A DNA stretch of 63,978 bases, filler included, from Collodictyon triciliatum (Eukaryota): assembly GCA_043381765.1 (NCBI GenBank). It is 7 parts of 7 records of this genome, joined end to end, with 100 filler letters (N's around TTAATTAATTAA, not from the genome) between each part and the next. Parts side by side here need not be neighbours in the genome. Positions count along the whole stretch, not along the records: positions 6,372 to 14,491 come from JBHJMP010001825.1; positions 14,592 to 25,378 come from JBHJMP010001826.1; 5 more parts are not named here. One strand, 5' to 3'. Shown in pieces: positions 2,176 through 26,188 of the stretch (within the stretch, counting starts at the first letter, position 1; the number at the start of each line of letters is the position of its first letter). The translations under genes were made by a program, and so were the position numbers. The notes under the pieces were generated by a model. It searched no databases. It was not told where the DNA came from and saw only the letters and a list, made by a program, of their open reading frames with translations.

Positions 2176-3538
2176 TCACTGTCCCGCGCCTGCCTGGAGA
2201 GTGATTGACTTATCAAACTGCTGCAAAGTGCTGTATATAGCATGGAAACCGCGTGTGATGTCGGAGCGAGTCTTTGCGCCGGTGAGGACAATCTTGCCAG
2301 AGACAAAGATCAGCAGGACAATCTTTGGCTCTTGCATGCGGTAGATCAGGCCTGGAAAGAGCTCGGGTTCGTAGCTGCAGTATGAATGATGTACATGGGC
2401 AAGCCCTTCCAGACGGATAGGGAAGCTCACGTCGCAGCTTCCGACGATGTTCTGAATCTTAAAGTCGAGAAACCGCGCCTCGAAGCCAATCTTTTGTACA
2501 ATGCGGGCATACTTTTTCGCGGCCAGCTTCGAGTCCTCCTCACTCTTGGCACCTGTGCAGACCATCTTGCCAGAACTGAAGATCAGAGCCGTTGTTTTCG
2601 GCTCGCGGATACGCATAATCACAGCAGCGAATCTATTTGCGAGAAACCTCTTGTTAGGCCGTTGTAATTCGATCCTTTCATTTGCCACGGAGAAATAGTC
2701 TGTGACACTATGGCCTCGGTATTGTGCAAGGTGCATATGAGACAACCATGCTGTCCATTTAATTCCGGCAACAGCATTTGCCAGAGGGAGGATATATAGA
2801 AGGGTAGGACAAGCATGGACAGAATGAAGATAAGGGAATATTTACAAAAAAAAAATAAAAATCCGAATATATGCGAAAATAACAGAGAAATGAACAAATA
2901 TACAGAAATACGCAATAATGCAAACACAGACATATGTAGAAATAACTAGTTATAAGCAGATATAAGCAGACATATATAGATATAAGCAGATGTACTCAGA
3001 TATGAGCAGTAAAGATATTGCTTGCAAGGAAAAGAGAAGGCAAGGAAAACCTCTTGGGATTGTACTCTGCATTTCGTGCATGGAGAGCAATTGTCTTGAG
3101 ATCCAGCTTGCAGCCGAGGTTGACCGTGGACACGACGTTCTGGAGAGTCGGCTCGATGAGCGGGACGTGTGTATTCTCCTCGGAGCGGGAAGGATCACGC
3201 TCGGTCATCATGTCGACCTGGTAGGGTCGCGGCAGCCCTTGCGATGCAGCAAGCATTCCAGACCCTGTATTTGCATGCTGGCCGGCAAAGCCATAGCCGG
3301 GCGCAAGAGAGCCGTACGGCTGCGGAGGCATCTGAGAGCCAGGGCGGCTGAGGCCGAAGGACGAGCCCAGAGACAGGTTGGAGCTGCTTTGCAAGCCCGA
3401 CGAGGCGCCTGTCATGCTGATCTGACTCAGCTGACTCAGCTGGCTCATGTGCCCCATGTGGCTGGCCTGGCTGAGTGGAGCCACGGGGTTCATTTGCGAC
3501 GGGGGCGCGTAGAAGGTGTTGCGTGTGGGGTGGGACAT
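2176..3538 (-). CDS. TBP: TATA-box binding protein; exons 3538-3051 and 2632-2176
   Basis: The spliced product reads [61 protein letters not shown]...[13 protein letters not shown]...[14 protein letters not shown]. All four DNA-intercalating Phe are present. It has an S/Q/G/P-rich N-terminal extension. Confidence 0.97.
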
Positions 3539-5506
3539 TTCGGCGCCTTGTTTTCTTTTTCTTGTTTCTTTTTCTTTTAGGAACTGTGCTATCCTGTGGT
3601 GTGGTGTGGGGTTTGGAGTTTTCATTTTAGCCTTTTGCTGCCGTGCTCTTGATTATTATAAGTTTTTTTTAAAAAAAAAAAAAAAAAGGAAAAAGGGAGG
3701 CAGAAAAGAGGCTTTGATCGATCGGAGCGGTTTGAAGCGGGAATGTTTGGACTGGTTGGGCATATAGAGGAGGGCCATTACGTGTGGTTGAATCGTGGAC
3801 GAGTCGAGAGTGCGATCGGCAGAATCGATCAGGCAGGCAGGAGGGTGGTCACGGAAGATCGTCAGGCGTTGTTGCAGGGTTTGATCGGACACACAGGCAA
3901 AGGCCGCAGATTGATCGCATGGCAGAGAGCAGAAGAGGCGGGTGGATGCGTTTTGTGGTTGGGAAGTGGGTTTGGTGGTTGCGAAGATTGTTGAGTACTG
4001 AGCTTAAAGCGGGTGGGAGGCTGATATAGCGCTTGCTTGCTTATATTCGTTGCTGCTGTATATATATCTCTCTGTCTGGGTTTGTGTGTGTGTGTGTCTG
4101 GATTGGCTGCTAAGGTGTTTTGTGATGTCTGGCGTGTTCGCGAGTTCCGTCAGCTGTGCCAAGATTTCGTGGAAGGGAGGATGTGGTGGAATATTCCAGG
4201 AACACGGGCGATTGTGGAAGATGGTGAGGGTAGGGCGTATATATGGTGTCTGAAAGTGAACTGATATGGATTTCCGCTATATATACTGTTGCAGGCGAAA
4301 TATAGTTTTGACGCATGTGGGTGGGAAAGTTGATGCGCAACGGATGTAAATTTGCCTTATGCTATTGTTTCTACTGCTCTGGCTATGCAACTTATATATT
4401 TGTTACATGCACATACACATTGTTTCATTATGTATATTACATGAAATACAGAAGTATAATAAATGTAGTATATCTTATGTACAGTAAATTCCAGATATGC
4501 AATATAAAGAAGACACTTTTTTTTTTAATTCTCTTGCTCTTCAATCGCTGAAGATTTGGATGCAGGGCAAAGCGCTACGCCAGGGTGTGGGTAAATGTTC
4601 ATGTGCGAAGCAAGAACGTATAGCAATACCAGATGCAGGATCTGGTTCTGGTGAATATCGTGTTTGACAGGCGTGGAGGGAAATGAGGCCGAATTATGGG
4701 CTGCAATTCCTGAGACCCAGCCTCCAATTGTTAACATGCCCAAGAGGAGCGCGTTCCGCTAGAATACTCACCTAGGGCAGGGCTTGCAGAAAAAATGCGT
4801 TGTTCAGTCCAGGGTTTCCAATCTCACGGAAAGATTTTGACAAAAAACATATCCGCCCAGAGCCCCGAGGCCGCGGTCGCTGCGTAACATCGCCCAAACA
4901 CAATATCTGGTATGGTATATGATTATTGATAGCAACTATGGTATGAAACAATTACTTGATATGGTACAATTACTTCCAAATGTGGCGTATTTGTGGCACA
5001 ATCTAATTACCAGAAACGAATTATTGACGAATCCGAGGTATAAGTAGCAGAACGGAGGCAGAGATCCATTTTATATTTAATTGGAAAAATTAGATTTTAA
5101 ATATAAAGAAGGACAACCAACTCACGCTTAGGTGGATCGAGAATGGGGCGGAATCGAGCCGAGGCGCTTTGTTTTGCGCATAACTGCAAAGTGTAGCGAG
5201 TCTTACAAACATACAAGCCGAGTGGCTCAAGGATGGGGAAGAGACTGGAGCGTGAGAAACCACTGGAGGGACAACACCGAGAGAGAAAGAGCAGCTGTCG
5301 ACAATCTGTGGGCAGAGTTTGCCGTAGAGCAGTCACCCGCTTCCCCCAGGCGCTGGCCTTGTCCGATGCCATATATTTCTTCTTTCTTTTATTTTTCCCC
5401 TCTTATTTCTCGCCTTTATCATATTCACAGGCTCAATGACAAATATTTCTTTCTTTCTTTCTTTCTTTCCCTTTCATTCTGTTCATAGGCCGAATACCTA
5501 GCGCAG

Positions 5507-6950
5507 ATGGCCCAGGAACACACTCATCGATATATAGCAGTATTACTGCTACTTGCAGCTGTGGTGGTTGTGTCCTTTCTGGTTTATGACAGGCAAACTG
5601 TCCTGGGCCCAACCGATGCCATAGCAAAGCACGATGAGTTTTCACATACTGGTGTTGACAAGGGGATCAAAAACGCAGAGTCCAGACACATTGCATATAT
5701 GGGAGATGATTTGGGAGACAGAAAATCGGATTACAATAAAGCTCTACGCAAAAACAAAGCAGTTGTCCTATCCGTTTGCAACGCTCCCAGGCTCCGGTTC
5801 TGTGACTTTATCAAATCAGCTCGTTCATACGGAGCTATGGTTCATTTATTAGATTACAAAGCGCAATGGGTCAGCAATAGAAATAAGATATTTGTTATGC
5901 GTGATGCAGTCCAGAAGTACTCAAACGACACTGTGATTGTTTTTGCAGACTGCTTGGATGTCATCTTCAACGATGAGTTTTCTTCTATTGTCAACAAATT
6001 CAAAGAGAAAAAAACAAACATTATTATGCCACTAGAATATATATGTTGGCCAAACGATATTGCATTTCAGTTCGTTCCCGATAATGTGCCGGCTGCACGA
6101 AGATGTTCCAGTGCATACGACGTTAAGAAATCTCATAATAAATGCTTCAAAAACGGGTAAGTGTTGTTTTATCACAAAGAAATTTTATTTTGGTTTAAAC
6201 ACACACACACACACACAAAAAAAAAAAAAAAAACTAACACAAAAATAAAAAAAACAAAAAATAACAACGGANNNNNNNNNNNNNNNNNNNNNNNNNNNNN
6301 NNNNNNNNNNNNNNNTTAATTAATTAANNNNNNNNNNNNNNNNNNNNNNNNNNNNNNNNNNNNNNNNNNNNAATTTTATTTTGGTTTAAAAACACACACA
6401 AAAAAAAAAAAAAAAAAAAAAACTAGACGAAGAGGAAAGAAGACATATGATTGCATGGGATAAAGTCGCAATCCCATCGAATTTTAAACAAACAAATCTC
6501 ATTCCCCATAGACCTCGATATATCAACTCAGGAACCTACATCGGATACGCCTGGGTGCTAAAGGAGTTTCTCGGCGCAATGTGCAACGAAATAATAACGA
6601 TGAATCACAAGGGAGTCGACGACCAAAAATACTTTCACGAGCTTTTCTTACACAACAAGCTCGATGTTTACTTGGACCACTGTGTTGAGTTTACGATGAT
6701 AATGCTAACGGTAGAACAAGCGTGTCGCCCTAATTGCCCTTGGGTCCGGAGAAACTATGATTATCTGGAGTACATACCAACCGGCTCAAGACCAGGTTTG
6801 GTGCACTTTGTTTACCACACTAAATTCACCATCTACAACAAGTACGTCAACAGCACGATGATTGTCAAAAAACCTCAACAAGTCTACAATGTGCCAATGT
6901 TATGGACAAACAACGAGCCAAAAGAAGTACATGAATTGTGCCCTTCATGA
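5507..6950 (+). CDS. Type II membrane glycosyltransferase, PLOD/procollagen galactosyltransferase-like GT-A domain; exons 5507-6156 and ~6440-6950
   Basis: N-terminal signal-anchor (IAVLLLLAAVVVVSFLV), VIVFADCLDVIF (DxxD), EYICWP, YINSGTYIGYA and DDQKYF motifs. GTAAGT donor at 6157; the intron spans an assembly gap and the acceptor is uncertain. Confidence 0.75.
6272..6371. other. Assembly spacer N-run / TTAATTAATTAA / N-run (also at 14492, 25379, 39865, 54343, 62351); sized gaps at 23106-24083 and 45109-45871
   Basis: The same 100-nt spacer with six-frame stops recurs; it is an artificial contig joint. Confidence 0.95.
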
Positions 6951-7477: not shown

Positions 7478-10400
7478 TCAAGTCGTTGCTTTCTGTCTCC
7501 ACTCCATACCTTTCTCGGTGTCCTGTTCAACACCCCACCCACTCTCATAGCATTCAGCAACCAAAGAAAACGCCTGAGGATATTTGTATTTATCGCCAAT
7601 CCTTTCTCCCCACTTGCCCAAAACATTCTCTTTCTTTTCAGCCATTTCTTTCAAAACAGTGAATGCCTCTTTTGAACCTTTCTGCGTGAGCAGCTGCAGT
7701 TTTTCGAAGTTTTCGGCCTTTCCAAACCATTCGATACCTTTCTCAGCGTCTCTTTCGACGACCCATCCATCTTCGTAACATTCAGCCATCATTTGAGCCT
7801 GAAACCTGGAGAATTTGCCCCGGGCGCAATGGGCAACAAAGTCCGCATCATAAGATACCGCACCAATTGAAAGCAAGAGGGATTTGTTGAATAAGCTCAA
7901 ACCTGACGCATTTCTTAGTTCAATATCCCCTCCTTCCAACTTCCTTGGGCCAATAATCCGAACTGTTTTTGCATCATAGATTCTGTTGGTATCAATCAAG
8001 TTCATTGTACCACTTGGTCTGCTGAATAATTCAAAGTTTTCATCCGTGGCTTCATTCATAGGGAGGAATTTTACTGGGGTGTATGTTACTTCCGGTTCTT
8101 TGAAGCTGGGGGTTTGGTTACCTGTGGCTATATCCCACATATGTATTTTGTTATCTTCACCCCCAGAGGCCAGCAAGATTTCATCATTTGGTCCTTGAAT
8201 AATGCAAACAATTTTGGTTGCTTTCTTATGACCCTCGTATGTTTTTATTTGGTATCCATAGGTTACGTCCCAAAGACGTATCGTACCATCTTCACTTCCA
8301 GATACCAACATCTTTTCGCCATTCGGCCCTTGAATACTGCAAACACTGTTCACAGAGCTGGTGTGTCCTTCTAACCTTTCTATTTGATTTCCTGCAGCTA
8401 CATCCCAAACAAGTATTGTTTTATCATCACTTCCAGAGGCCAATAGAAATTCACCATTTCGCCCCTGGGTGCTGCAAATACTTAAAACATAGCCTGTATG
8501 TCCTTCAAGTGTTTTGATTTGCTTTCCTGTGGCTACATCCCAAATCCGTATCGATTTATCATTGCTTCCGGATGCCAGCCACTCTTCACCATTCGGTCCT
8601 TTTATACTGCAAACACATACAACCCAGGCTCTATGACCGTCTAATTTTCTTATCATACTTCCTGTGGATACATACCAAATACATATTGTTCTATCATCTC
8701 CCCCAGATGCCAATAAGGTTTTACTGTTCGGTCCTTGAATGCTGCAAACACTATTTATAGATGCTGTATGTCCTTCTAATGCTTTGATTTGGTTCCCTCC
8801 TGCAAAGTCCCAAATACGAATGGTTTCATCTTCACTTCCAGAGGCCAACCAATTTTCACCATTTGGTCCTTGAACACTACAGACACAATTGATATATCCT
8901 TTATGGCCCTCTAGTGTTTTGATTTGGTGTCTAGAGCTTACGTCCCAAAGTCTTAATTTTTCATCCAAACTTCCAGAGGCCAACCAGTTTTCACCATTCG
9001 GTCCTTGAACACTGCAAACACACTTGGTGTGAATTGTATTCCCCTCTATTTTATCATGAGGAATTCCAAATTTTACATTCTTCATATTTGCATTATCAAA
9101 AATACAATCACCAAGCATCGAATTTGTAAAGTCAACCCCACTCAAGTTGGCACCAGTGAAGTTTGCACCGTCAAGCATTGAATTACTAAGATTTGCACAC
9201 GGAATTTTGATTTTTGATAAGTCCATATGACCAAACGAAACATTCATAAAATTCAAAAGTGTAATTGCATCAGATGCAGCATTTGATTTAGTTTCATCGG
9301 CTCTTGACATAAAGACGATTCTGAATAATGATGTAATTATTTGCTCACGGTTCCATTCCTCATCCATTGTTGTGTCATCAAGAGTTTCCTTGATAAATTC
9401 CTTGACTCTTGTAAACTCGACAGGCTCTCGGTTGATTCCGATGTCTTTTGAATGAGTGGACAAGTATTCGCATGAGTTTAATGTTCTGGGGTGAAACCAT
9501 CCAACTTTTATTGAGAATATATCCCTCATTTCAGTCCAAAATTCGACAGCGTCATAATGCTGTTTTAATTCGGTATATTTTATCGCAATTGATTCACAGC
9601 TAGTCCATATTCCAATATAGTCCATGGTGTGTATTTCACTGAATAAATGAATCAATGATCTATACAGTTGAATGGCTGCTTCATGCTCTTTCTTTTTCTC
9701 CATTAGGCTTGCTATTTTTACACATAAAGAACCATCTTTCAACGCCATAGTGGTCTTTGTTTCCTTCCTGATAGTAGCTGCCTTCTGGAAATACTCAACG
9801 ACTTGGTCTAATCTGAATGCATCGAGTTATTCAAAAAAAAATTGATATAAAAGCACTTGCATGAAGATGGCTTAGTTTTTTTTTAAATTGAACAGGTCTG
9901 TTACCTTTGAAGTTCAAAGTTTTTTCTCCCAGCAGCTTCAAGATAATTTGCATTATCAACATGTGAAAACTTGAAGCTTCTCAAATTAATGTCGAAATTT
10001 TCAACACTTTTGATGCAATCCAGAATAAAAATATTTGCCAGACTTGTTCTCTCATGGTTCCATCCAAGTTTTTCATGAAACCTATCTCTAATTTCAGCCC
10101 AGAATTTGGCGGCATTTTCGAGCAGTCTATTTTCCTTGCAATATTTATTTGCATTTTCACAAGCTGTCCAGCAGTGCCAATTTTCAAAGGACGATTTTTC
10201 ACCATGTCTGACAGCAAAAGTTTTGCAAAGTTGAATGACTGCTTCATGCTCTTTTTTCTTCTTTACGAATATTATGATTTTCTCTATCTGTTGTATATCA
10301 TTCAAGGACATGACAGTTTTTGTCTCTTTTCTTATATAAGCTGCCCTCTGAAAGAATTCCACGACTTGGTCTAATCTTAATTCAAAAATTATGAAGAGGA

Positions 10401-13400
10401 ATATTAACTGAAATATGTAATTAAATGCCTCAATAATTGGTTTTTAACTAGAATCTTTACCTTTGAAGCTCAAAATTTGTTCTCCCAATATTTTCAAGGG
10501 AAGTTGCATAGTCAACATGGTTTTCACCTGATGTTCTCTCACGAATGTTCAGAGTCTTTGTGTAAGCCTCCAAAGCATCCTTAAAGCTAAATTTATTGTT
10601 CCGCTTTTACAATTTATTCAGGAAGTATATTCAAGTTGTCAAATTTACATGTATTTTTTTATTTTTACTTTTTCAAATCATGACTATTGTCTCCAATAAT
10701 TTCCAAGCAGGACACAACATTGGGGTGATTTTCTCCAAGAGAAAATATGAAAATATCCAGAGATTGATTTAATGAGTGCAGAGCCTCAGTTTTCCTACAT
10801 TAATATGATTTAATTGAATGCAATTTACGATGATTTTTTTATTCTTCCTTTAAATTTTGTCATACAATTTACGATGGTATAAAAATAATTAAATAGAACT
10901 ATTTTTACCTCCCACTGGCGAGGTAATTGTTTGCAATAAACTGAATTGTCAAAGCAACTGATGCATGCTTGAATCCAAGAGATTTTTGAAAAATTGATTT
11001 TGCTTTTTCGTAGCTCTCGGTGGATTCTTTGTACCTTGATTATACAGCCAACTTATAATCTTCACATAAAAACAAGGGGTCCAATATACAATAAATATGA
11101 ATGAAAAAGCAATTCATAAAAATAAATTTCAGAGATATCTGTTACTTTTTTTCGGCCAAAAACACATGCCCATAGTTCTGATATGATGACGCGACAACAG
11201 GGTGCTCATTTCCGACTTTCTTTTGGCGAATCTCCATAGACTTCGTGTATTCTGCTAGAGCAAGCTCAATCCTTTGGCAAAGATGTTCATTAGATGTACA
11301 TTTTTATATCTTGTTGACTAATTTAACACAATAAATGATCGAATAAATAAAAAAAATCATGTAAATATAGAAAATGAACAACTTTGATTGATTCAGATGG
11401 ACATCCCCGAAGCGGTCGTAAGATTGAGCCACTTGCAAGTCATTCTCTCCCACATTTTTGAGTCTCAATTCAAGTGATTTTTTATATTCCTGTAGAGCCT
11501 CATCAACCCTTTATATTTATGTTAGCCAAACACGTCAATTAATATTTTAATAGGTTATAAAGCATTTGAACGTGTATATTAACCCCACTTATCCTGCTAT
11601 TGGTAGATAAATCCCATTTCTTCATAAATCGTGGCTATTTGCAGAGCATTATCTTTACATTTCTCCATTGAATCAAGACATTTCTTGTAGTAAATCATGG
11701 ATTCAACCCAGCTATACGTTTTTTTTAAAAATAATTAAAACGGTTTCGGATTCATACGTTTATAATTTTTATTATAAATAATCATATACTTTTGTAGGTT
11801 CTGATAGACACGGCCAAGATAGTGGTAATCGGCAGCCTTCGATTCTTTGAATTCAACGTAATCAGTTATTATTAAAATCTAACTTTTTATCTAAATTTTA
11901 CAATCTCTCAAAAATGACGTATCGAATACCTTCTGTTTGATGCTTTGCAATACGAACATTAAGAATAGATAGAAGATACTGGTTTTCGAATGACTCCAGA
12001 AAAAATTCAACAAGTAATTCACCGAAATCATCCAGAGACTGAAGAAAAAAAATCATAATTCATGAACTCGTTATTCAATAAAAATGCATATAAATACCCT
12101 TGGATATTGATACATGATTTACATTAAATTTAAGGACCTTAGAAAGATTTCCGTAAACATCCTTGTAGTTCGATGTTCCACTTGCATGAATTGCTCTCCA
12201 GCATGTAAAGAATTCGTAGCGATAGCGACCACTGAGCATAGTCCTGATGACCTTTAATAAAATTATAACCCATAAGCAGACAAGAAAATACGACCAAAGA
12301 AGTAAAATACCAAAAATTCTACTCAAAATCATTTACATGCTTTTGCTTCAAATATTCGAGAAGCAAGTCAAAGGAATTTCCCTTCATAAGTTGGTAGCAT
12401 ATTTCAGCAGCAAGTTCCTCATCCACATCAATGTTATCTAAATATTGAGCAAAGAGCCATTTTCCAAATCTTTCTCGTGTTTTCTCCATTTCTTGGCTTT
12501 CAGAAAAGAAGACCTTTTCACTGGTCTCCAAAAGGAGCTGGTGAAAGTACATGTATCTATTGAATTCAAATCCGGATTTTATTCCAAATAAATCCGCATA
12601 AAAGCACATATTTTAATACAAAAAAGTTGAATAAGCCCAACCTTCCATTTCGAACGAACAGTGAATCTATGAGCGTGAAGAAGAAAGATTTCCTATAAAA
12701 AATATAAAAGTCAATCCAATAGAAGTTCATAGCTGCAAATTTAGTAGAAATAAAGCCTGTAGATGGCTTTTTTTAGTAAGAACAAACCATTTGGCTAGCT
12801 CGAAACCCGTGCCAGTCATGTCTTTCATGTAATTATCCAAATCTCCTTCGCTCAAACCAATTCGAGAAACAAAAAGAACTTTCATCGAAGTTGCGACATA
12901 TTCTACGCCTAATTACAATCATTTTAAGGCTCCATGAACCATCTAATTTATTTCAAGCGATTGACACAAATTAAAAAGAAAAACAATTTTTCTTTGGGAA
13001 ATAGTCTAAAGGACAAACCTTTACTATCAAACTTTCCTTGCCAGCGTTGGATAATGAGGGTGTAAAGCTCAATAACTCCATCTGTCGAAAGCAGTGAGTA
13101 TAATTCATCATCGAGTTTCTCATATACACCGAAAACCTTAATCTCCTCCAGAATGATACGGAGATAAAGTGGGTGACCTGAGTTTATTTTAAAAGGAAGT
13201 ATCTTACAATATTATCGACAAAACAGATTACCATTAAATCTATTTCTCGTAATAAAAATATATGACTCACCAGTATCTTCCAAATCACCCAGAATCATTC
13301 CAACTTGCTTCTCGTTCAGAGTTTTGTCATAGCGAATGAGAAATAATTCGACACCATCCTTAACTTCACTTTCTGTCAACTTTGTGAGAGGAATGGGCTC

Positions 13401-14491
13401 CAACCCGCTTCGCTCGGCAGACTTGTTTTTGGTTAATAATAATTCGATGGTATTTTTACCAAAAAAAAAAAAGTAAAATAAATACCTTGCAAGATTCATG
13501 TGAGTGAATAGTCGACACAACCATGGAAACATTAGGCGATGTCTCTTTGGGCAGCCAACTCAGCAGATGCGGGGCTGGTGTTCCTTGCGATGGATGCATT
13601 TGGTTGATAGCATCGATAAGGAAGACAAACTTCTCGTCCCTAAGAAAAATTAAAAATTTTCTATTGGTAGAAACAAAAAGATATATAGTAAACAATAATA
13701 TTACTTATCTTTCTCCTGAATCATCGTAAGTAACCCCTGAAGCTCCTTTTTTTCGTATTCTGGAGGCAAAATTAAGTGAACATATTAATAATTATTCAGT
13801 ATTTCAAAAAAGGGATAAAAACATGGTATTTCAAAAAAGTCAAAAAAGTCAAAAAAGTCAAAAAAGTCAAAAAAGTCAAAAAAGTCAAAAAAGTCAAAAA
13901 AAAAGGGACACCATCATACAGTTTAAAATTAATTTAGCAGTTCCCTTGAATCGAATAAAGGGAAAAAAATAATTAATTTACCAGCTTCCAGTTTTTTTGC
14001 CCGATAAAATTGGCAGTGTTTGTGACCAAAGTCCAGAAGCGAATCGAAATACTGAATAATAACAACCATTTTAATAAAAACTGCATATTGAAATAAAAGA
14101 CTTTAAATCAGAAAGAAATATAAACAAAAAACCTTTCCACGTAGTTGCTGAGATTGGTGCATCCGACAAAATGGAAAAAAACATTCAGCCCAGGATGCTT
14201 CAGCCCCTCGAGGTCTCTCGCTGCAGCAGCCATGAGCGACGATTTTCCAATCCCAGACTCGGCAGCAAGAACGATGATTTTGGACTTATCCACACCAAGT
14301 TGATTCATAGTCTGATAAATAAAAATAATTTACAGATAAGACAAAAGAAAAAAAAAAGGATATTACAGTTATTTTTATATATAATTCTATATTTTCAACT
14401 TACTTGCTCCGTGATTGTCTTGAGAAGCTCCTTTCTTCCGCCAAACCCAGCCAGTCGATGCATCTTGAACTGGTGCTGCGCTTGGTCTTCA
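7478..14491 (-). CDS. NLR-like STAND NTPase: NACHT (TEP1/NPHP3-like) - TPR array - pentapeptide repeats - 7x WD40 - 2x SEL1; multi-exon, 5' end runs into gap
   Basis: FGGRKELL; Walker A IIVLAAESGIGKSSLMA (~14235-14280); FFHFVGCT; Walker B FVFLIDAINQM; LSWLPK..PNVSMVVST; GHPLYLRIILEEI. 126-nt TPR exons follow. The terminal exon 9812-7478 encodes ANLSNSMLDGANFTGANLSGVDF, seven GH..WD repeats and two AECYE.GW.VE.D.EKG.EW SEL1 repeats. Confidence 0.85.
8113..9049 (-). repeat. Seven tandem 135-nt (45-aa) WD40 coding repeats with high internal similarity
   Basis: Recurring LEGH...VCS.QGPNGE.LASGS.D..IRIWD. Nucleotide period of 135 (for example ttccagaggccaacca at 8836 and 8971). Confidence 0.92.
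10461..11711 (-). repeat. Array of one-TPR-per-exon cassettes (126 nt, same intron phase on both sides)
   Basis: Exons 11508-11383, 11271-11146, 11034-10909, 10794-10669 and 10586-10461 are each 126 nt and flanked by AG/GT. Exon 11711-11589 is 123 nt. They encode 42-aa kinesin-light-chain-type TPRs (for example ALAEYTKSMEIRQKKVGNEHPVVASSYQ). Confidence 0.85.
13831..13898. repeat. 9-bp minisatellite (TCAAAAAAG)n in intron
   Basis: About 7 tandem copies read directly. Confidence 0.9.
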
Positions 14492-14591
14492 NNNNNNNNN
14501 NNNNNNNNNNNNNNNNNNNNNNNNNNNNNNNNNNNTTAATTAATTAANNNNNNNNNNNNNNNNNNNNNNNNNNNNNNNNNNNNNNNNNNNN

Positions 14592-14682
<91 letters not shown>
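14592..14682. repeat. (ATT)n microsatellite abutting gap
   Basis: Direct reading. Similar runs occur at 54443-54540, 62041-62195 and 62263-62350. Confidence 0.95.
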
Positions 14683-14684
<2 letters not shown>

Positions 14685-16206
14685 AGTATAATTATAATTT
14701 AGTCCAAATTGACTCACTATATATTAATGTAATGTTGTATAGCGTTTAAAGAAACACTTGGAAGTACGAGAATATGCCCATTTAAACCAACCACTGAAGT
14801 AAATCGAACATCATGCTTCCATGAAAAAAAAGGATGCAGTGGTCATGTAAACTCTGACAAATGTTTTTAAGGGAGAAAAGCTTTGAATACTTATGCTCAG
14901 TTCTAAAAGTCAGAAAATATGTGAAAGTATTATTTGCAAGTCATGTGACAATTTTTCGAAAATAATCAAACAACCAAGGTATTTACTTTGAATTTTGCAC
15001 TAGATGAGAGATTTTATTAGAAATACTTCATCAGACTATCAATAACATACCTTTCTTTTTTTTTAAAAAAAAATCAAGTTTATTAACTATTTTAACAGTC
15101 ATTAAATATTATTTTTGACCTAAAGTACACACAAATATTGCAGATAAAAGATTTCCTACCCAATCCCCATCGTATTTATGTTTGAATATGTGTTTTCATA
15201 CTAATCAATCCTGCTTAAAATTATATGTATCTTTGATTTACTTGAATTTTATTTCTAATCATTTTTAAAAGTAACTAAGCTGTTTTTTGAAAGATGTATT
15301 TTGGCAAAATTATAATTAAAAGTATATATGAAATTACATATATGACAGCATGGTGCAGCTGTGATTGATCGTTCTCATAAATCGAGCAGAAGTGTCGCCA
15401 TAATATTTTCCCATAGTTTTGTATAAAAAAATCAAAAAATTATCTTCAATTAGATTGTAACCTTGATTTTCTCATAATTACACCAAACTGTAAAGATTGT
15501 AAAAAGACAAATTTTTAAAATTCAGAATATGATGAATTCCTATAACGCACAAACAAGACAAAATCGGAAAATGAAAAAAAAATTATTGCGTCTTAATAAA
15601 TGAAGAATGTGCAATTGAAAGAAAATTGAAATATTAGTTAACGCATAAAATCTGCACATTTATTTTTTTTTATACGTCTGCCATTCAAATAATTATCTAT
15701 GACTGCTCATAAACAAAATCATGCCTTTATTTTTTTTGGCATGTATACGAAGTACACTTTCAGAGCAATTTTTTCCAATTTTCAGAAAGCACTGCATCAC
15801 AACCTGCAACTTATAATTTAAATATAACAAATGAAGTAATAATATTGCGCCTATTTTTATCCTGTTTTTAGGTCGATTTTTTACTCCATTATGAGGAAAC
15901 CAAAATTTTCTGCTATGAACATCGCGTACGACCCTATTTTTAAGCAATAATACTAGAATCAGGCTCGCAATTTATATTAAGCATTTTATCACATAAAATT
16001 TTCAAATTGTAGCAAAGTGCGAGACATATATACAGAGGGTGCCAAATACTCCAGCCACAAATATGTCAGAGGCAGTGGAGTGTTTTACAGAAAATCTTTG
16101 AGGTTAGTTATTAATTCACTAATCCAATGGTTTACTGTCATAATATCTGATAAATTGCTTTTACATCCCACTAATATTCAATCAATTTTAATATCATCAG
16201 TTTTCA

Positions 16207-19200
16207 ATGCTGCTTATCACATTCATTGCAATAACTTCGTTGGTGTCATTTACTGCTTCTGGTAAGCCCCGCAGAATGTGATTTTGTTATTTAGGGGCAT
16301 TCAATTTTCGGTACGAAAGTTTTTATGTAATCAAGTAAATTGCATAACACAAGCTGTCAATATTCTCGGGAATAATTACTTTCCATGAAAATGCAAGATG
16401 CATTTCAAATATTGCTGAATCTGTATGATGAGAGCTGCCCATTCGATTCGGAAGCACACAAAAAAACTGTCATGTCGCCCGGTTTACATGATATCTATCG
16501 AAATATATCCACATCCAGAAAAAAAGTCCTTAATAGACATGATTATTCAGGTAAGCACCATAAGAATGATAGTAATTCCCATGAAAATATTCTGTAGATC
16601 AATTTGAAAGAAACTAATATGCAATATTTGATATACTATAAAGACGTGGGCATGAAACGAGCCGGAAATATTACCAGCCAGTTAGAACTTCTAATTCAAT
16701 TTTACGATTTACTTGATGGAGAAAAATGGATCAATAATCGTGGATGGAAGGACCAATATACTCCAATTTGCGAATGGTATGGAATCCACTGCGAAGAGAA
16801 TTGCTCAAACGAAGATATACTTGTAAGTATGAAGTAATTTTAAACTTCTTGTCTTATATTCAAAAACTACTAAAATAATAATGACTAATTTTGTAAAAAA
16901 AAAATTAGATAGAGAAATAACCCCATTCCATTGTTTTGTTTTGATAGAATAATACATGTCCGATTGTCGGAATCATATTGCCAAATAATGGACTTTATGG
17001 GGGAATGGAAGCTCCAAATGCAATCATCGAGCAGCTTCCTTTCTTGAAGAACTTGACCTTAAGCTCCAATTTCATTTACGGGAATCTACCTGACTTCAAT
17101 CTTCCGAATATTTTGTATTTAAATATTCGAGGGAACCAGCTTATTGGAACAATACCAGACTTTCAGAGAATTCCACATATCTCGAATTTGATTATTGATA
17201 ATAATATGTTAAGTGGAACTGTTCCTGATTTCTCTGGAGTCACTCATGCAAGATATTTGTGGATTGGATCTAGTAGCAAATTGACTGGTAGCTCATAGTT
17301 TGTCATCTAGGAATGATAGAACTTGAAAATTGACCAGTCTTTTTTTTATAAAGGAACATTGCCTGATTTCTCTGGATTACCAACCGTTCAAGACCTTAGG
17401 ATATACGAATGCAAAATATATGGTTAAAATCCTTTTAAAAATTAAATTTCACCTTATCTCTAACATTATTCTATGTTGTAGGTACCATTCCAAACTTTCG
17501 ATACATCCCGAATGCCCTGATAGTCTTTCTTCATAGCAATGAGTTTACAGGTGATAATTAAAACTATGTTAGTAATGTTAGGCATTTGGACCTAATTAAA
17601 TAACTCAATAGGAACGATTCCAGACTTCAATGAGATTCCAAATGTCGAACAGATATCTTTATATATCAACCTATTGTCCGCCATATTTCTTTTCAAGCAC
17701 TAGCCTGATTTGTTTCGGTATTAATATAAGACCTAATAGGGCCCATTCCAAACTTTAGTAAGATAAAGAACGTCTGGTGGATATCTATTTTTTATAACCG
17801 ACTGACAGGTAAGTAAAAGTGAGGATAATTTCTAATTAAAACACTTTTTTCCTTTTTTAGATTTAAGGGAAAGGTTTTTGTATCGTTTTCTATTGTCTGA
17901 TGTTGTTATTGCGCATTGTATTCAATCAGTGGTTAATTTATTACCATAGGAACTCTTCCAGACTTTGATGGAATTCCAAACTTAAGTTTTCTTGATGTAT
18001 CAAACAATCTGTTATCTGGTAGGTCTATGTATTATTTTCAATTGATTTGTGTATCTAAATTTATTTCGAACAAAGGTAAAATCCCAAATTTTCATGGTAT
18101 TCCATGCGCGGAACATATTTTTCTTCAAGCCAATTTACTAGAGGGTGAGTTTTTTTTTCTCCTATATTCGATTCAAGTGAAGGACGGTTTTTTTTTTAGA
18201 TTTTACTGGAGGGTAAGTTTTTTTTTCCTTTATTCGATTCAAAGTACTGGAGGGTAAGTTTGAAATCACATAGTTGGATTATACAATCGGATTTTAATCT
18301 ATTTGAAGCGCAGGAGCGATCCCAGACTTTACTGGTTTTACGCAAGTTAAATCAATAGATTTATCCAAAAACAGACTTGGCGGTGAGTGACCTTGTATCG
18401 AAGCTTGAGTATCATACGTTAAATATAACACTATATATATATTCAAAATACCACGTTCAAGTACACTAAGAAACATACCTAGAAATATTATGCATTTAAG
18501 TATTTTTAATCCTGCAGGATACATCCCGGATTTTCACAACATTCCATCGATCCAAAACGTTGACATTTCTAATAACCAAATTGTTGGTAAGATAATCTTG
18601 TTTTTTTAATAGATATTGTTGTCACCTCAGATTCTTTTTTGTAGGTACAATTCCGAACTTTGGAGGAATTCCGAATATTTTATTCGTCCTCTTATATAAG
18701 AATCAGTTCAACGGTAATTTTTATATTCCCTAAATATCTTGCCAGGTACTGCAACCAAGAAAAACTGTTCATGTCGCCTATTACTTTCATATAGGAACAA
18801 TACCAAACTTCAATGGAATCTCAAAAGCACTTTCTTTGCTTTTATATAGCAATAAATTGACAGGTAAGCCTCATCAGTCCGTGGTTAAATGATTGAAGTT
18901 TAAATTCAAACATATCATGATAGGAACGATACCTGATTTTGATGGAATTATAAACATCAGAAGGCTTCAAGTAGACAGCAATCTCCTAACAGGTTGGTAA
19001 AATATATTCATGAACGAATCGGATTTTTATAAATATACTTATTTCTCCAGGACCAGTACCCGATTTCACCTATTTGGCGAGCATGGAGCATTTTTCCGCT
19101 TACAAAAACCTTGTTCAAGGAAGTGTGCCAACCTTTGAAAACTGCCCAAATTTAAAAGAAATAGTGCTCTTTAGAAACAATTTAACAGGGACCATGCCTT

Positions 19201-21597
19201 CTTTTAAGTTACTTGACTTAACGAGATTGATTTTGAGCGAAAATCATATTAGTGGCTCCATTCCAGATGAATGGGAAATACCATCAATCCAATATATCGA
19301 TCTTTCTAGAAACAAAGTGGAAGGGAAAATGCCTAAACAATTTGAAACACTTTTTGAATTGAAATCTCTCATCCTGTCACACAATTGCTTCTCTGGAAAT
19401 ATGCCCATCAAGTTCTGGAATCTACCAGACCTTGTCACAGTCGATTTAAAGAATAATTCATTTATTGAAGATGTCGGTGTCTTTGTATCTCCAATAAATG
19501 ATGAAGATGATTACAACTATTTCTACGAGAGTCTCTTGCTTGATGATAATAATCTATATGGAGAACTAAACTGGTGGATCTTTGATTACGTCTTTAATGT
19601 AAAAACAGTTAGTTTGAGAAACAATAATATCACTAAGCTCGATAATCTTACAAATTTACTCAAATGGACATCACTAGAGTTGTCTGGAAATCCAATTGTG
19701 GGAAGCATTCCAGAATCATATAGTCTTTTTTCAAAGCTAGAGTATTTAGGATTCAGTAATACATCTATGAGTCGTGGACGGGCCAATTTTCTTCCTTCTT
19801 TCATGACATACGCAATTCCTTTTAGCCTGGGTGATGATTCAAAGCTTTATTTGTGTCCTTCAATTATTTCTAATAATGGAATTATTACATTGAAAGTAAA
19901 CTTGGATCCAGGATACTATGAATATGAATTCTGTAAATGTTTGCCGGGATATTTTGGCTTCGGTGATAATTGCGTTCAATGTCCCAGAGAATGCGAATGC
20001 ACAGATGGAGTCACTTTGAATTATTGCCATGCATCCCCAAATCTGATTACGATCAAGACAATCATCTCATGCCCATACCCTCAATCTTGCAAGACATTAA
20101 TTCCAGGGAAGACTTCTAATTCCAATAAAACGGTTGAAATTACTCACTTGTGCGAGGATGGATACGAAAGTCATGCATGTTCAAAATGTAAAAGCGGGTA
20201 CGGAAGTCAAGGGAGGTCTTGTGTAAAATGTCAAAATGGGACTACATATTCAACACTGATTTTTGGCTCTATTGGTTTTTGCGTCTTCATGTCATTTTTG
20301 TATTTCTCAGAAACATCAAAATCAGGTAGCTTTATAATTTATTTCACTAATCGCACCTCAGTTATTGGCATTCATCAATAATGTTCTTGGTATTAATACA
20401 TATATATTTAGCAAAACTTGGAATAACTTTGTTTCATCTGCAAACTCTCTCAATTGTCTCGACCGGATTGAACGAGTCAGAGGAAACAAGCAGCTTTATT
20501 GACATTTTTTCATCCATCGGCTCTATTCAATTCCCAAACCTTTCCTGTGTCCTTGGGATAGATAATTTATTTGATTCTCTCTTGTTCAGTTTTTTAAGAA
20601 TTCCTGTTTTCATAATTTTTGGGTCAATTGTGTATTACCATGGACATGGACAAAAAAGAAACAAGGTAAGGAATAGTTGCATTGTTTATGTAGGCTTATT
20701 TTTTTTTGAAAAAATACATATCTATAGGCGTTCTTCATCACTATGAACCTTTTGTTCTTTATCTACTATTCCATCGCAAGAGAAGTATTCGGAGTTTTTG
20801 GATGCACTGTATATGATAATGGAGAAGCCGTTTGGTACTTGAATTTCAAACCGTGGATTCAATGCAGTCCGTCTACTTTTGAATACGCGAAACTTATTGC
20901 AATTTCTGTCCTAGTGTTTGTTGTATTCTTGGTTGGATTACCTGTTTTTGCTTGGTGGAAAGTTAATATTACGACAAAAAGTTATGGCTACGACCCAGAA
21001 GCGCGATATGGATTTCTTTACCTGGCTTACAAAAAGGTATACCTCGGTAATACATTGTCATATATAGCGATTCAGTACTTGGTATCAATTCTCAACACTT
21101 CTTTATTTTAGACCTTTCAATATTGGGAATTTGTCATAATCGCCCGTCGCATCGCATTTTCTTTTGTTCTTAGTGTGATTCCATACACTAGTCCGTCCGT
21201 TTTCTTTTTTCTTCTTGTAATCGTCATCCAGGTTAAATTTTACTTTTTTTTTTTACCTTTACAAAAAAAAACAATTTTCAAGGATATACCATAATTGACC
21301 ATATACTTACAGGGTTCAATTTGGATGCAAAAAGAGTACCAGCCGTACAAAGTTGAAATAGAAAACCAAATGGAACTAACCAGTTTGTACATCATTTTCA
21401 TCTCATTCTTACTCGCGCTTTTATCGAATCTTCTTGGATCAAAAACGTGGGTCACAGTTTTGGTAGTTGGAATGAACTCAACGTGGTTGTTGTATTTCAC
21501 GACTGTCGCATTTATAATTCCGCTCTTGAAAAAAAGTGGAATCAAAAAAAGGATTGTATCTCTGAGACGACTCAAGGGGAAATTAACATCATTATGA
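16207..21597 (+). CDS. LRR ectodomain - Cys-rich linker - multi-pass (about 7 TM) membrane receptor-like protein, multi-exon
   Basis: Signal-peptide exon 16207-16261 (MLLITFIAITSLVSFTAS), LRRNT cap (W.NNRGW...PICEWYGIHC), and plant-type extracellular LRRs (G.IP.F....L..L.L..N.L.G). Then CKCLPGYFG..C..C, CEDGYESHACSKCKSGYG, hydrophobic helices with FHLQTL, YL..PWIQC, YGFLYLAYKK|..YWEFVIIARR, QPYK..EN.ME. Stop at 21595-21597. Confidence 0.85.
17354..18992 (+). repeat. Eleven 69-nt single-LRR exons (phase 1-1)
   Basis: 17354-17422, 17482-17550, 17612-17680, 17740-17808, 17950-18018, 18076-18144, 18314-18382, 18518-18586, 18645-18713, 18795-18863 and 18924-18992. All are preceded by AG, and all except 17612-17680 are followed by GT. 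Confidence 0.9.
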
Positions 21598-21989
21598 AAC
21601 AATGCTTCCTCGAATAACATGTCCAGGATGATGACAATCCAAGAATAAAGCAAGAAATGAAAATGATATTCTTTTCCTTTTTTTTCTGTGACATGAATTA
21701 TTCCCATCGTTTTTTTTGGTCCATCAATTCATTTCATGATTTTTTCGAAGTTATGGCTTATGTTCGCTTATCTCATCGAAGTCTCTCTAGCACCACATGT
21801 GCGGTTATTGTATCGGGTGTTGTTATGGTTGTAAAAGCGACAGCCTTCCTTATAGGCGAGCCCTTTCAGCTCCTCAATCACAAATAAATCCCCATTACAG
21901 TGAAGACTGTCAATAAGGTGGTGCCTTATTCAACATAATGTTTAGAGTGCTCTAGACCGATATTTTTTAAAGCTTGAAGTGGGCACTTC

Positions 21990-23105
21990 ACCCCAATCAA
22001 AGACAACTGGACAAAATCTGGGGGAATACGCGTGAATCCTAAATTCGTTATATTTGACAAAGAGCAGGAAAAAAATGGGGAAAATACCCACCTTTGTCGC
22101 CAATCATTCAGGAGAGTCGCTGCCGTTTGGAGATACGCCCTCAATGAGTCTGACATCCCACCAACTCTCACAACAATGTGCTCTGAGTCGGATAAAGGAA
22201 AAAAAACTCACAGAAATGCATGAAATGGCAGAAAAGGTCAACCAGCCCAAAAGATCGCCACCGCCAAGCCGACCACTGCCAAACGAGCAATTACAACACG
22301 CAAAATGCTACAACACGCAACTTTGGCCACAACACAAAAGAAGCCAACTACAGCGCTGAAAGCTGGCCAAAGTCAAAACGATTCATTTTCCAATGCCAAT
22401 AGGAGAATTCGTGACGAGAGAAAGTCGTGGATGAAGTGCTTGATATCTCAGTCAAAACAGAGTGTTATGGAGGGTCCCAAAATCAATATATGGATATCAA
22501 AATAAAAAAATGGACGAACGACCTGTCGCTTTGTCTGGACGTACTTCTTCAAGTTTGTCAATCAACACGGAGGAGGCGATATCGATATGCATCAACAGAA
22601 GCCCAGCATAAATCACTGATGCGAAGCAGCCTAGTCCATCGGAACGGTTTTCCTGATTGTTTAGTGGCTTCAAAAATCCTAGACTATTGGCCTGGTATAA
22701 TTCCTCAACATTGAATATTTCGAATTAAAGGAGCTCTTTTAAAAATAATAATAACAAAAAGGAAATTCTTATGAGAACCATTTTCTAATTCCCAAGTATT
22801 ATCGCATGTCTCACGCACTCAGCTGAAGCTCAAGAGGCTGAAGGAGCTGGAAGACATCCGCCGCAGCTTCATCGCTACAGATAATCAAAAGTATAAAAGC
22901 TGGAAGCAAGCCCATATATCTCAGTTACGTCCTAAACACCGCGCCCTACTTCTCAATATCTCCAACAGAGAGCTGTGGATAGGTGCGCGCGTGTTTCATG
23001 TAGCAACGACATCTACAGAACGCTCCATGTGCCTTAGTGGAGACGACTCTATCGAACACACATTTGTGAAGTGCTCTCTTGCTCAAAAAGTGACAGAGTC
23101 TACCC
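21990..23105 (+). mobile_element. Decayed non-LTR retrotransposon (L1/Tx1-like) ORF2 C-terminal remnant
   Basis: Fragments in shifting frames: SGGIRVNPK (end-of-RT-like), KWQKRSTSPKDR (W..R.LS.kGR-like), and a zf-RVT-like WKQAHISQLRPKHRALLLNISNRELWIG...SMCLSGDDSIEHTFVKCSLAQKV running into the gap. Confidence 0.65.
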
Positions 23106-25547: not shown

Positions 25548-26188
25548 AAAGAATTATGGTGCATGATGAGTTGTGGAGTGATTAAAAAGACCACTGGTTA
25601 TCCCAACCGAGATACCAATAACATGGAGAAAGAAAGCGGGGGATAAAATGTGCAAGTCTGAGGCGAGCACAGGGAAGCCGAGCAACGAGACGCCTGCTTC
25701 TGCCGTGCCTGTGGTCTGCCCACTCCAACTCTGTTTTCCACAGCTTGGCGAGATATGCCTCTGCCTTCCCATATATCAGAGTCTCTCATTTATTAAGCAA
25801 AGCTGTAATCCTCGCACAATCCTTCTCTGCAGTCGCGCACATTCGGCCCACAGCAAAGTGAAGGGGGTGAGAATCAGTGCCGATGAGTGCCTGCAACATA
25901 GGAAGGAAGCAGAAGCACAAAGACCACACGACGGGAAAGTGGCCAAATCATGTCGAAAGTGATATTCCACATTTGTCTTGATTTTTTTTTTCTTATTCGC
26001 TCGCTACCGATCCAGTTTTGTAGGGTTAAGGCTCTCTTGACGTCACTATTATCCACACCTCATCACGAGTTTCGCTGACTCCGAATCGCCCTTTGTAAGA
26101 AGCAATCCGCACCCAGAAACCACCCATCCTGTTATTCGTCTGTGTGCGCGCCCCCTTTTTATCCTCCTAACACGCTGGACTCTTAGGA

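Follow-up and report, generated by a model that had tools for sequence, protein, structure and literature searches.

In our study, a stretch of 63,978 nucleotides of DNA from Collodictyon triciliatum (assembly GCA_043381765.1), hereafter called the window, was analysed. The window was eukaryotic and intron-rich, and two genes were found to occupy positions 7478-21597. The minus strand contained a gene for a predicted STAND NTPase (signal transduction ATPase with numerous domains) with tetratricopeptide repeats (TPRs) and WD40 repeats, and the plus strand contained a gene for a predicted membrane protein with leucine-rich repeats (LRRs). The preliminary description of this DNA had presented the two as a diversifying immune or sensing island, made of a relative of the receptors with nucleotide-binding and leucine-rich-repeat domains (NLRs) and of a surface receptor. 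We consider it likely that they are two unrelated intron-rich repeat-protein genes, placed side by side on the draft scaffold of a freshwater protist, and that the arrays in which one repeat occupies one exon are an old, fixed fossil and not an active generator of diversity.

The best database relatives of both genes were transcripts of Diphylleia rotans (EukProt), and the homologues P0001, P0121, P0134, P0193 and P0200 of Diphylleia are referred to below. The construction of both genes from one repeat per symmetric exon, as described earlier, was confirmed, since five TPR exons of 126 nucleotides (nt) were found in phase 2-2 and ten LRR exons of 69 nt in phase 1-1. This cassette anatomy is far beyond chance, as judged from the scores of hidden Markov models (HMMs) of the LRR and TPR units. 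The layout of one repeat per exon covered only part of the repeat array in each gene.

The model of the STAND gene contained 21 exons and ran on the minus strand from 14490, at the edge of a filler, to a stop codon at 7478. Every acceptor was AG and every donor was GT, the introns ranged between 64 and 222 nt, and the GC content was 0.40 in the exons against 0.24 in the introns. The parts of the gene were as follows.

14404-14490, minus strand: first visible exon, with the helix that precedes the P-loop; tblastn match to P0134 residues 611-640 with 67% identity; it abuts the filler
14133-14311, minus strand: exon B, with the Walker A motif (GIGKS); NPHP3_N 17.3 bits; NACHT 16.1 bits, profile positions 3-47
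13982-14051, minus strand: exon C, with a frame conflict, from the three-frame translation and the P0134 and P0193 sequences
11930-13759, minus strand: exons D-L, nine in number and 51-220 nt long, separated by introns of 64-110 nt; tblastn match to P0134 with 37-66% identity
13486-13639, minus strand: exon E (one of these nine), with the Walker B motif; NACHT 15.7 bits, profile positions 81-128
11790-11844, minus strand: exon M, 55 nt, a half TPR that opens the array; it aligns with the homologous stretch of P0134
11589-11711, minus strand: exon N, a TPR exon of 123 nt in phase 2-2, the positional counterpart of unit 1 in P0134 and P0200
11383-11508, minus strand: TPR cassette exon of 126 nt, AG/GT borders, phase 2-2, TPR_12
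11146-11271, minus strand: TPR cassette exon of 126 nt, AG/GT borders, phase 2-2, TPR_12
10909-11034, minus strand: TPR cassette exon of 126 nt, AG/GT borders, phase 2-2, TPR_12
10669-10794, minus strand: TPR cassette exon of 126 nt, AG/GT borders, phase 2-2, TPR_12
10461-10586, minus strand: TPR cassette exon of 126 nt, AG/GT borders, phase 2-2, TPR_12
9905-10375, minus strand: exon T, 471 nt, phase 2-2, a helical segment of 157 residues that repeats the start of the last exon
7478-9812, minus strand: last exon, 2335 nt, with a helical linker, pentapeptide repeats, WD40 repeats, Sel1 repeats and the stop codon

The donor of exon B was 14133, or 14141 in an alternative model with an open frame. 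Besides the Walker B motif, exons D-L comprised an exon with the GxP motif, those of the winged helix and the linker that leads to the TPRs. The NACHT matches of exons B and E were collinear but weak (16.1 and 15.7 bits, each scored on its own exon, against a cut-off of 26.7). The five 126-nt TPR exons started one base ahead of a codon boundary and ended two bases into a codon, and the introns separating them were 82-114 nt long. A TPR_12 match was found in each of the five in the identical profile register (E 1e-7 to 7e-3), and with the TPR-unit HMM the cassette exons scored 69-77 bits. Altogether, the half unit was followed by six 42-residue units of the NPHP3/KLC type (TPR_12, TPR_NPHP3). 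The last exon gave Pfam matches to pentapeptide repeats (E 1.9e-8), to WD40 repeats (E 1.3e-62), with seven units of 45 residues each, and to two Sel1 repeats (E 8e-11), so that TPR_12, WD40, pentapeptide and Sel1 repeats made up a C-terminal repeat domain such as that which forms the sensor of an NLR-like STAND NTPase. The gene had been described as a NACHT-TPR-WD40 gene, and it is probably NLR-like, with a weak, collinear NACHT-like module beside the TPR and WD40 repeats. Upstream of the last exon, an intron was present every ~137 nt of coding sequence; therefore the TPR array, with its 126-nt exons, is no more finely cut than the NTPase domain and differs only in being periodic.

The WD40 blades of the STAND gene (7680-8640, minus strand) followed an exact period of 45 residues and were far more alike than those of typical propellers, with 42-67% identity of residues and 60-72% of DNA. 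In the Diphylleia homologue, blades of this kind were roughly three times as numerous.

The model of the LRR gene contained 19 exons (16385-21597, plus strand) in a single open frame of 1228 codons, as follows.

16385-16550, plus strand: putative first exon, of doubtful coding status and without a signal peptide
16644-16822 and 16948-17287, plus strand: exons 2 and 3, with a plant-type N-terminal LRR cap and the first three or four LRRs; tblastn match to P0121
17354-17422, 17482-17550, 17740-17808, 17950-18018 and 18076-18144, plus strand: first five of the ten 69-nt LRR cassette exons, AG/GT borders, phase 1-1
18314-18382, 18518-18586, 18645-18713, 18795-18863 and 18924-18992, plus strand: last five of the ten 69-nt LRR cassette exons, AG/GT borders, phase 1-1
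17612-17680, plus strand: eleventh LRR exon, L3x, with frame and acceptor intact and CC in place of the GT donor; HMM 46.0 bits
19051-20325, plus strand: exon 15, 1275 nt, with about eight LRRs, a Cys-rich stalk and the first membrane helix; Pfam LRR_4 1.3e-20
20412-20665, 20728-21036, 21112-21231 and 21313-21597, plus strand: exons 16-19, a multi-pass membrane module (by hydropathy) and the stop codon

With the LRR-unit HMM, the 11 LRR exons, that is the ten cassettes and L3x, scored 39.5-46.1 bits. In L3x, a stop codon preceded the next GT, and this exon is probably an inactivated one lying inside an intron of 189 nt. In the encoded protein, no fewer than 22 LRRs, each 23 residues long, are followed by a Cys-rich stalk and ~8-10 membrane helices. 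A plant-type ectodomain, with an N-terminal cap and a GxIP-type solenoid, was recognised through LRR_4 and LRR_8; for the cap itself, LRRNT_2 scored 17.7 bits, under the cut-off of 20.7, and an LRR_4 match was also present in exons 2 and 3. The plus-strand gene had been announced as a surface LRR gene with several membrane passes. Its LRRs and membrane helices were recovered, whereas the window yielded neither a secure first exon nor a signal peptide, and nothing in it matched the signal-peptide region of P0121. One freshwater metagenome contig differed from the putative first exon by 9 substitutions and a 1-nt insertion (after 16459), and one contig contained a 1-nt insertion after 19866, in exon 15. 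The two insertions could be strain differences or contig errors, or the first exon could be non-coding.

Both genes were found to belong to multigene families, as seen in Diphylleia, in support of the preliminary description. The STAND model was 48% identical to P0134 (2619 residues) over 876 columns; its identity was 48-52% to P0134 and P0193 and 30-36% to seven other Diphylleia genes. P0134 contained CH, DUF4062 (E 1.1e-10), STAND NTPase, TPR_12/TPR_10 and pentapeptide domains and many WD40 repeats, and its NTPase scored 24.4 bits with NACHT (cut-off 26.7), 26.1 with nSTAND1 (cut-off 27.1) and 22.3 with NPHP3_N (cut-off 24.8). The N-terminal motif of DUF4062 was likewise visible in the other relatives that were retrieved. 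Through the homology of its NTPase module to proteins that start with DUF4062, the STAND gene is predicted to encode an NLR-like ATPase of the DUF4062/NIR-associated clade, to which NWD1, TEP1, NPHP3 and bacterial Avs2 belong. When the NTPase module of P0134 was used as the query of an exhaustive search, 4581 relatives were obtained at E<=1e-3, of which 35 also passed E<=1e-30. Ten top relatives were looked up; nine of them were named, all nine being separate Trinity genes of Diphylleia rotans, and the tenth was an NCBI record. No relative of the NACHT module of P0134 was found in the PDB at E<=1.

Exon 15 of the LRR gene was 41% identical to P0001/P0121 with 100% coverage. The layout of LRRs, Cys-rich part and membrane part was present in at least four Diphylleia genes, and the next relatives after Diphylleia were plant LRR receptor kinases, which matched in the LRR part alone. 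The LRR gene is, as far as its sequence tells, a member of an undescribed LRR-membrane family; a literature search found no paper joining Diphylleia with leucine-rich repeats, and none on a family that combines an LRR or Ephrin ectodomain with a Cys-rich part and a multi-pass membrane module. An exact copy of either window gene was not found in the protein collections. In the JGI metagenome contigs, an alignment of four Diphylleia LRR-membrane proteins gave 118 pattern matches and LRR exon 15 gave 24, none of which was confirmed. Short contigs of 151-265 nt with 98-100% identity to the window were found in three of four freshwater metagenome runs (three studies). These cover scattered parts of the window, and the L3x donor, the STAND gene and the filler at 14492-14591 lie outside their coverage.

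The age of the repeat exons was judged from their divergence. Pairwise DNA identity among the 11 LRR exons ranged from 30 to 67%, with a mean of 50%, and the introns beside them were unrelated, having in common only two 12-nt words, which is a chance level, and one internal repeat. The TPR exons shared 6-18 of 41 residues. At ~50% DNA identity, the units are saturated and too far apart for dN/dS to be estimated. When the whole window was searched in six frames, no stray or antisense remnant of a repeat exon was found, the best scores outside the model exons being 7.9 bits with the LRR HMM and 6.9 bits with the TPR HMM. The order of the TPRs was also conserved: all six window units best matched the unit at the same position in P0134 and in P0200, and P0134 against P0200 likewise gave 6/6. 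The ongoing shuffling and the changing exon order that had been proposed for this locus are not supported by these results.

The proposal of a linked pair, in which a cytosolic NLR-like protein and a surface LRR receptor have their repeats diversified by exon shuffling or cassette splicing, therefore has to face exons that are about 50% identical, unrelated introns, a window free of stray or antisense exons and a TPR order kept in three family members. It can draw on exons that look like those of Ectocarpus (126-nt TPR exons, LRR exons of 69 against 72 nt, and a junction at the G of GxIP), on one exon with a lost splice site and one with a stop codon, both of which would be inactivated exons by the Ectocarpus count, on one tandem exon duplication, on the multigene state of both families in Diphylleia, and on the use of the DUF4062/NIR-STAND-TPR architecture by bacterial antiphage Avs2 (10.64898/2026.09.04.749371). 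It has further against it that the metagenome contigs, sparse in coverage, showed no exon rearrangement at 98-100% identity, that the adjacency of the genes depends on an unsized filler hiding at least 610 codons, and that NWD1, a relative from the same clade, has a non-immune role. We regard this proposal as highly improbable.

The isoforms of the relatives also bear on the matter. A look at isoform diversity had been suggested, and 17 isoform pairs from the same Diphylleia clusters, from homologous genes, were compared. An internal difference of cassette size (23 or 42 residues) was seen in none of the 17 pairs. In three pairs, gaps of 4-20 residues were present where one isoform enters unrelated sequence, and the remaining pairs showed end truncations or a few substitutions only. 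In the TPR arrays, three of four break points lay exactly at a window junction and the fourth was 2-3 residues off; in the LRR arrays both break points were at the G before xIP, and the single break point in the membrane module was at the junction of window exons 16 and 17. The simplest reading of these break points is that of introns retained at the intron positions of the window. The cassette junctions would then be common to paralogues that are 30-36% identical in the NTPase module, and the cassette layout would therefore be old.

These isoforms also make it improbable that a fixed genomic order is combined with alternative skipping of symmetric cassettes, so that receptor diversity would arise at the RNA level only. 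All cassettes are symmetric and any subset of them could be skipped in frame, a full-length product requires the skipping of L3x and of exon N, and alternative splicing of LRR exons in brown-algal ROCO genes was reported in 2024, in the part of that paper available to us (PMC11378527). The isoform pairs of Diphylleia, however, showed end truncations and retained introns instead of a cassette-sized difference.

Likewise, no exon rearrangement was found in the contigs from the three freshwater metagenome runs (98-100% identity, sparse coverage), and only a 49-nt difference in copy number inside an intron was seen. Several other observations weigh against a fixed, fossil array. The number of LRRs between two anchor units was ~2-3 in the window and 13 in Diphylleia P0121, so the length of this array has changed. 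The window TPR units 2 and 3 scored 89 with each other, against 58-65 with their Diphylleia counterparts, which would fit a later duplication or gene conversion. Events such as the two inactivated exons and the tandem exon duplication were counted as signs of exon turnover in Ectocarpus, in the portion of that study at hand, and both gene families are expanded, as families of immune receptors often are. We take the gains and losses seen here to be the ordinary slow turnover of repeat arrays.

Three such events were visible, namely the lost donor of L3x, the nonsense codon of exon N and the tandem duplication at exon T, and two of them lie in the STAND gene together with a frame conflict. Exon N contained an in-frame TAG, the sole in-frame stop among the 2,918 codons of the two gene models; therefore a variant genetic code is unlikely, and a reassigned stop codon was rejected as an explanation. 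Skipping of exon N (phase 2-2) would preserve the reading frame. In exon C, the motif VESISIRFW, which is identical in Diphylleia P0134 and P0193, and the conserved stretch downstream of it were in different frames, with a run of seven A nucleotides between them. With the alternative donor at 14141 the frame stays open and the conserved motif is lost. A tandem duplication with a period of ~556 bp was found by blastn (10519-10229 against 9963-9666, 68% identity over 302 nt). The alignment includes the intron, and the duplicated segment reached from the 3' end of the TPR exon S through this intron into the first portion of the last exon; it was single-copy in Diphylleia P0134 and P0200. Exon T thus reads as the chimeric product of this duplication.

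An element of ~45 nt was also observed at exon C, the exon with the frame conflict (13915-13995, minus strand), and in the LRR gene (18135-18280, plus strand). It comprised an exon end, the GT donor and the first ~30 bases of the intron. Its core, TTATTCGATTCAA, had 5 matches in the window against 0.29 expected. In sense orientation the element occurred once after exon C of the STAND gene and in two or three tandem copies in the LRR intron L6-L7, and one of the tandem copies was absent from one freshwater metagenome contig, in which 6 nt stood in place of 49. The element is possibly a small donor-bearing unit that is mobile or prone to slippage.

The 5' part of the STAND gene was not recovered. 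Residues 1-610 of P0134, which contain the CH and DUF4062 domains, had no tblastn match anywhere in the window at E<=1. The model begins directly at the filler 14492-14591, and by the Diphylleia homologue ~610 codons, about a third of the gene, lie upstream; provided that the STAND gene is complete, at least ~3 kb must be missing at this filler. An N-terminal effector domain was accordingly not found in the window copy, in a region that abuts the filler and may be unsequenced.

With these lesions, the STAND copy could be a paralogue that is dead or dying, set in an AT-rich region that is in decay and bears a retroelement, and the island would then have no function as a unit. The frame conflict of exon C, the TAG within exon N and the lack of the 5' third of the gene in the window are all in keeping with this, as are the dead exon of the adjacent LRR gene, in which no signal peptide was detectable, a zf-RVT remnant nearby, and the many pseudogenes among the Ectocarpus members of such families (PMC3341825, in the part available). 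However, 777 codons are open in the last STAND exon and 1228 in the LRR gene, and the other splice sites are all canonical. The conflict in exon C is at a run of seven A nucleotides in a gap-rich draft and may be a base-calling error, the symmetric exon with the TAG could be skipped, and the missing 5' part abuts the filler and may be unsequenced. We consider a dead paralogue rather unlikely.

Under the interpretation that we prefer, that of old and fixed arrays, the arrangement of one repeat per exon would be the relic of exon-plus-intron units that were duplicated in tandem long ago, and symmetric exon phases would permit repeats to be gained and lost in frame, with the three events named above as the visible part of a slow turnover. 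Because the units are old and fixed in their order, there is no sign of active shuffling or of a functional gene pair. The genes are divergent on the scaffold, and since the unsized filler between them hides at least 610 STAND codons, the head-to-head pairing is insecure. Adjacency by itself does not show that two genes act together; the genes are non-homologous and only one of them is NLR-like.

By analogy with NLR-like proteins, the repeats of the STAND protein would be the sensor, the NTPase the switch and the N-terminal domain the effector. The repeats would hold the ATPase off until a ligand is bound, after which the ATPase would oligomerise and activate the N-terminal effector; this end consists of CH and DUF4062 domains in the Diphylleia homologue. 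The LRR-membrane protein is most likely a surface protein for binding or sensing, and an immune role of either gene would be an analogy only.

If this interpretation holds, the locus offers a clear case, from a eukaryotic branch that has been little studied, of repeat arrays built by the duplication of exons with their introns. It suggests that such a design can stay frozen for a long time, as the junctions are common to Diphylleia paralogues of only 30-36% identity. It also supplies a genomic exon structure for the DUF4062/NIR class of NLR-like proteins, which was described only recently. The present evidence does not point to a novel mode of immune diversification.

The nearest published parallel was found in brown algae. 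In Ectocarpus, the TPR exons have 126 nt and the LRR exons 72 nt, and the case for shuffling was built on repeat exons of equal length, dead or antisense exons in introns, recombined recent duplicates and clusters rich in pseudogenes, according to the available portion of the report (PMC3341825). The brown-algal parallel drawn in the preliminary description is sound as regards the anatomy of one repeat per exon. As in the NB-ARC-TPR and LRR-ROCO genes of Ectocarpus (Zambounis et al. 2012, from the part available), the window exons have a constant length that is a multiple of three and are symmetric in phase, the TPR exons have exactly 126 nt (42 residues), the LRR junction is at the G of GxIP, and inactivated exons and multigene families are present. 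Unlike in Ectocarpus, as far as the same source goes, the switch is NACHT-like and not NB-ARC, the LRR exons have 69 and not 72 nt, and the partner of the LRRs is a multi-pass membrane module instead of a ROCO GTPase. The window also lacked the debris of intronic or antisense exons, its exons were ~50% identical and its TPR order was kept between homologues; no extra or antisense exons were found inside introns, and the two inactivated exons were inactivated in place. It is conceivable that a lineage near Diphylleia (CRuMs) arrived at the same design independently of brown algae in two receptor families, the NIR-type NLR-like ATPases with 126-nt TPR cassettes and the LRR-membrane proteins with 69-nt LRR cassettes, with in-frame exon loss, duplication and skipping varying recognition across many paralogues, but we hold this to be quite improbable. 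If it were true, the dead exons and the tandem duplication would be visible traces of the turnover.

The STAND gene was also compared with the proteins of its own class. DUF4062, renamed NIR, is the NADase effector in Avs2, a bacterial STAND protein with TPRs, and the majority of the NIR proteins of eukaryotes are NLR-like and carry NIR at their N-terminus, according to the accessible part of a bioRxiv study that covered EukProt v3 (10.64898/2026.09.04.749371). The mammalian members listed there are Nwd1, Nwd2, TEP1 and TTC41, with NPHP3 as a borderline case, and NADase activity was not found for Nwd1, Nwd2 and NPHP3 in the same part of the study. Mouse Nwd1 has been reported to act in purinosome assembly (PMC7186558, in the part available). 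Immunity is therefore not a given for the class. The DUF4062/NIR family of NLR-like proteins was already described as a kind in 2026, and the STAND gene of the window is a new member of it. Like the members described in the part of that study available to us, it has a STAND NTPase that precedes TPR and/or WD40 repeats, and its Diphylleia homologues begin with DUF4062. It differs from them in that DUF4062 is not seen in the window copy, owing to the lack of the 5' part, and in its extra pentapeptide and Sel1 repeats, to which a CH domain is added in the homologue.

The fungal NLRs also offer a comparison. The repeats of fungal NLRs of the HET-E/NWD type are near-identical and lie within single exons. 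NACHT combined with WD40, TPR or ANK repeats in fungal NLRs was reportedly described by Dyrka et al. in 2014. The window gene shares with these proteins a NACHT-like switch, similar WD40 blades (42-67% identity of residues) and an expanded family. It is unlike them in that its blades are only moderately alike and its TPRs are split one per exon.

Among plant proteins, the LRR gene resembles the LRR receptor kinases and receptor-like proteins in having a plant-type LRR solenoid with an N-terminal cap. A Foldseek search with the predicted model of the Diphylleia homologue, in which the LRR part had a predicted local distance difference test (pLDDT) of ~85-95, found solely LRR ectodomains, and its top matches suggest a likeness to those of PSKR, ERL2, FLS2 and MIK2 (E ~1e-10). 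Unlike the plant receptors, the window protein contains no kinase, its repeat period is 23 and not 24 residues, and a Cys-rich stalk and a multi-pass module replace the single helix. One LRR per exon is a feature of SERK-type plant genes. The design of one repeat per symmetric exon is itself classical, with glycoprotein-hormone receptors as a further example, and the locus differs in its lineage and the partner domains. The head-to-head NLR pairs of plants had been cited as a background to the two genes; this analogy fails, as only one of the two non-homologous genes is NLR-like and their divergence spans an unsized filler.

The membrane module of the LRR gene was found a second time in the window, in a single-exon paralogue.

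39965-43834, plus strand: single-exon paralogue of 1289 codons, with 17 Ephrin_rec_like repeats (Pfam 3.8e-123) followed by the Cys-rich and multi-pass module

The 5' end of this gene is open at a filler. Over 485 columns it was 25% identical to the LRR model (blastp, E 2.7e-18), and LRR exons 16-19 were homologous to its C-terminus and to Diphylleia proteins. The membrane module is common to both genes, which therefore present, within 20 kb, one chassis with exchangeable ectodomains. They point to an uncharacterised membrane family in which an LRR or Ephrin-receptor-like ectodomain is followed by a Cys-rich stalk and a multi-pass module. No Pfam family was found for the membrane module by hmmscan except DUF7630, which was under its cut-off, and a sequence search of the PDB with the module found no relative. 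The ESM Atlas clusters nearest to the module of the paralogue (language-model features 0.95-0.96) contained 11-15% members with PF06011 and 48-90% with Ephrin_rec_like. The likeness to multi-pass proteins that are annotated as TRP (PF06011) in algae and protists is thus a language-model lead, which was not confirmed by profiles, the PDB or models: neither the paralogue's membrane module nor P0123 matched PF06011, even with the threshold relaxed to E<=10. The AlphaFold model of P0123 had an overall pLDDT of 62 (55-79 within its membrane part) and that of the paralogue module one of 43.6, which is too poor for a fold comparison.

The only longer relative of the paralogue module from the word-index search was P0352, a JGI metagenome protein of 830 aa (22% identity, E 2e-11), which carries TIR_2. 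Such a joining of a membrane module to a TIR domain would be of interest.

The GC content was 0.24-0.38 across 6-26 kb against 0.41-0.49 on either side, in agreement with the AT-rich block described earlier. Six fillers of 100 nt were present in the window (N-run table), each made of 44 N, a 12-nt linker with stops and 44 N. The following features of the fillers and flanks were found.

14492-14591: unsized filler between the two genes, N44, a 12-nt linker with stops in all frames and N44; a (TAA)n run comes after it
5489-6947, plus strand: GT_PLOD glycosyltransferase domain, split by the filler 6272-6371, with profile positions 3-115 before and 126-187 after it
22775-23104, plus strand: remnant of a non-LTR (long terminal repeat) retroelement, the zf-RVT zinc-binding tail of a reverse transcriptase (E 1.4e-6), cut off by a gap of 978 N

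The halves of the GT_PLOD domain are collinear over the filler 6272-6371; therefore the unsized 100-nt fillers join true neighbours in the right orientation. The right flank had been said to hold the remnant of a long interspersed nuclear element, and its zf-RVT tail was indeed present, whereas no match to a reverse transcriptase domain was found upstream of it, in the open reading frames (ORFs) at 21978-22711. A 615-codon ORF with many hydrophobic stretches and no Pfam match at E<=0.01 was present at 26171-28018 on the plus strand. On the minus strand, positions 2176-3652 contained a putative gene for a protein like the TATA-box-binding protein, with a long Q/S-rich N-terminal exon, as recognised by eye in ORF translations.

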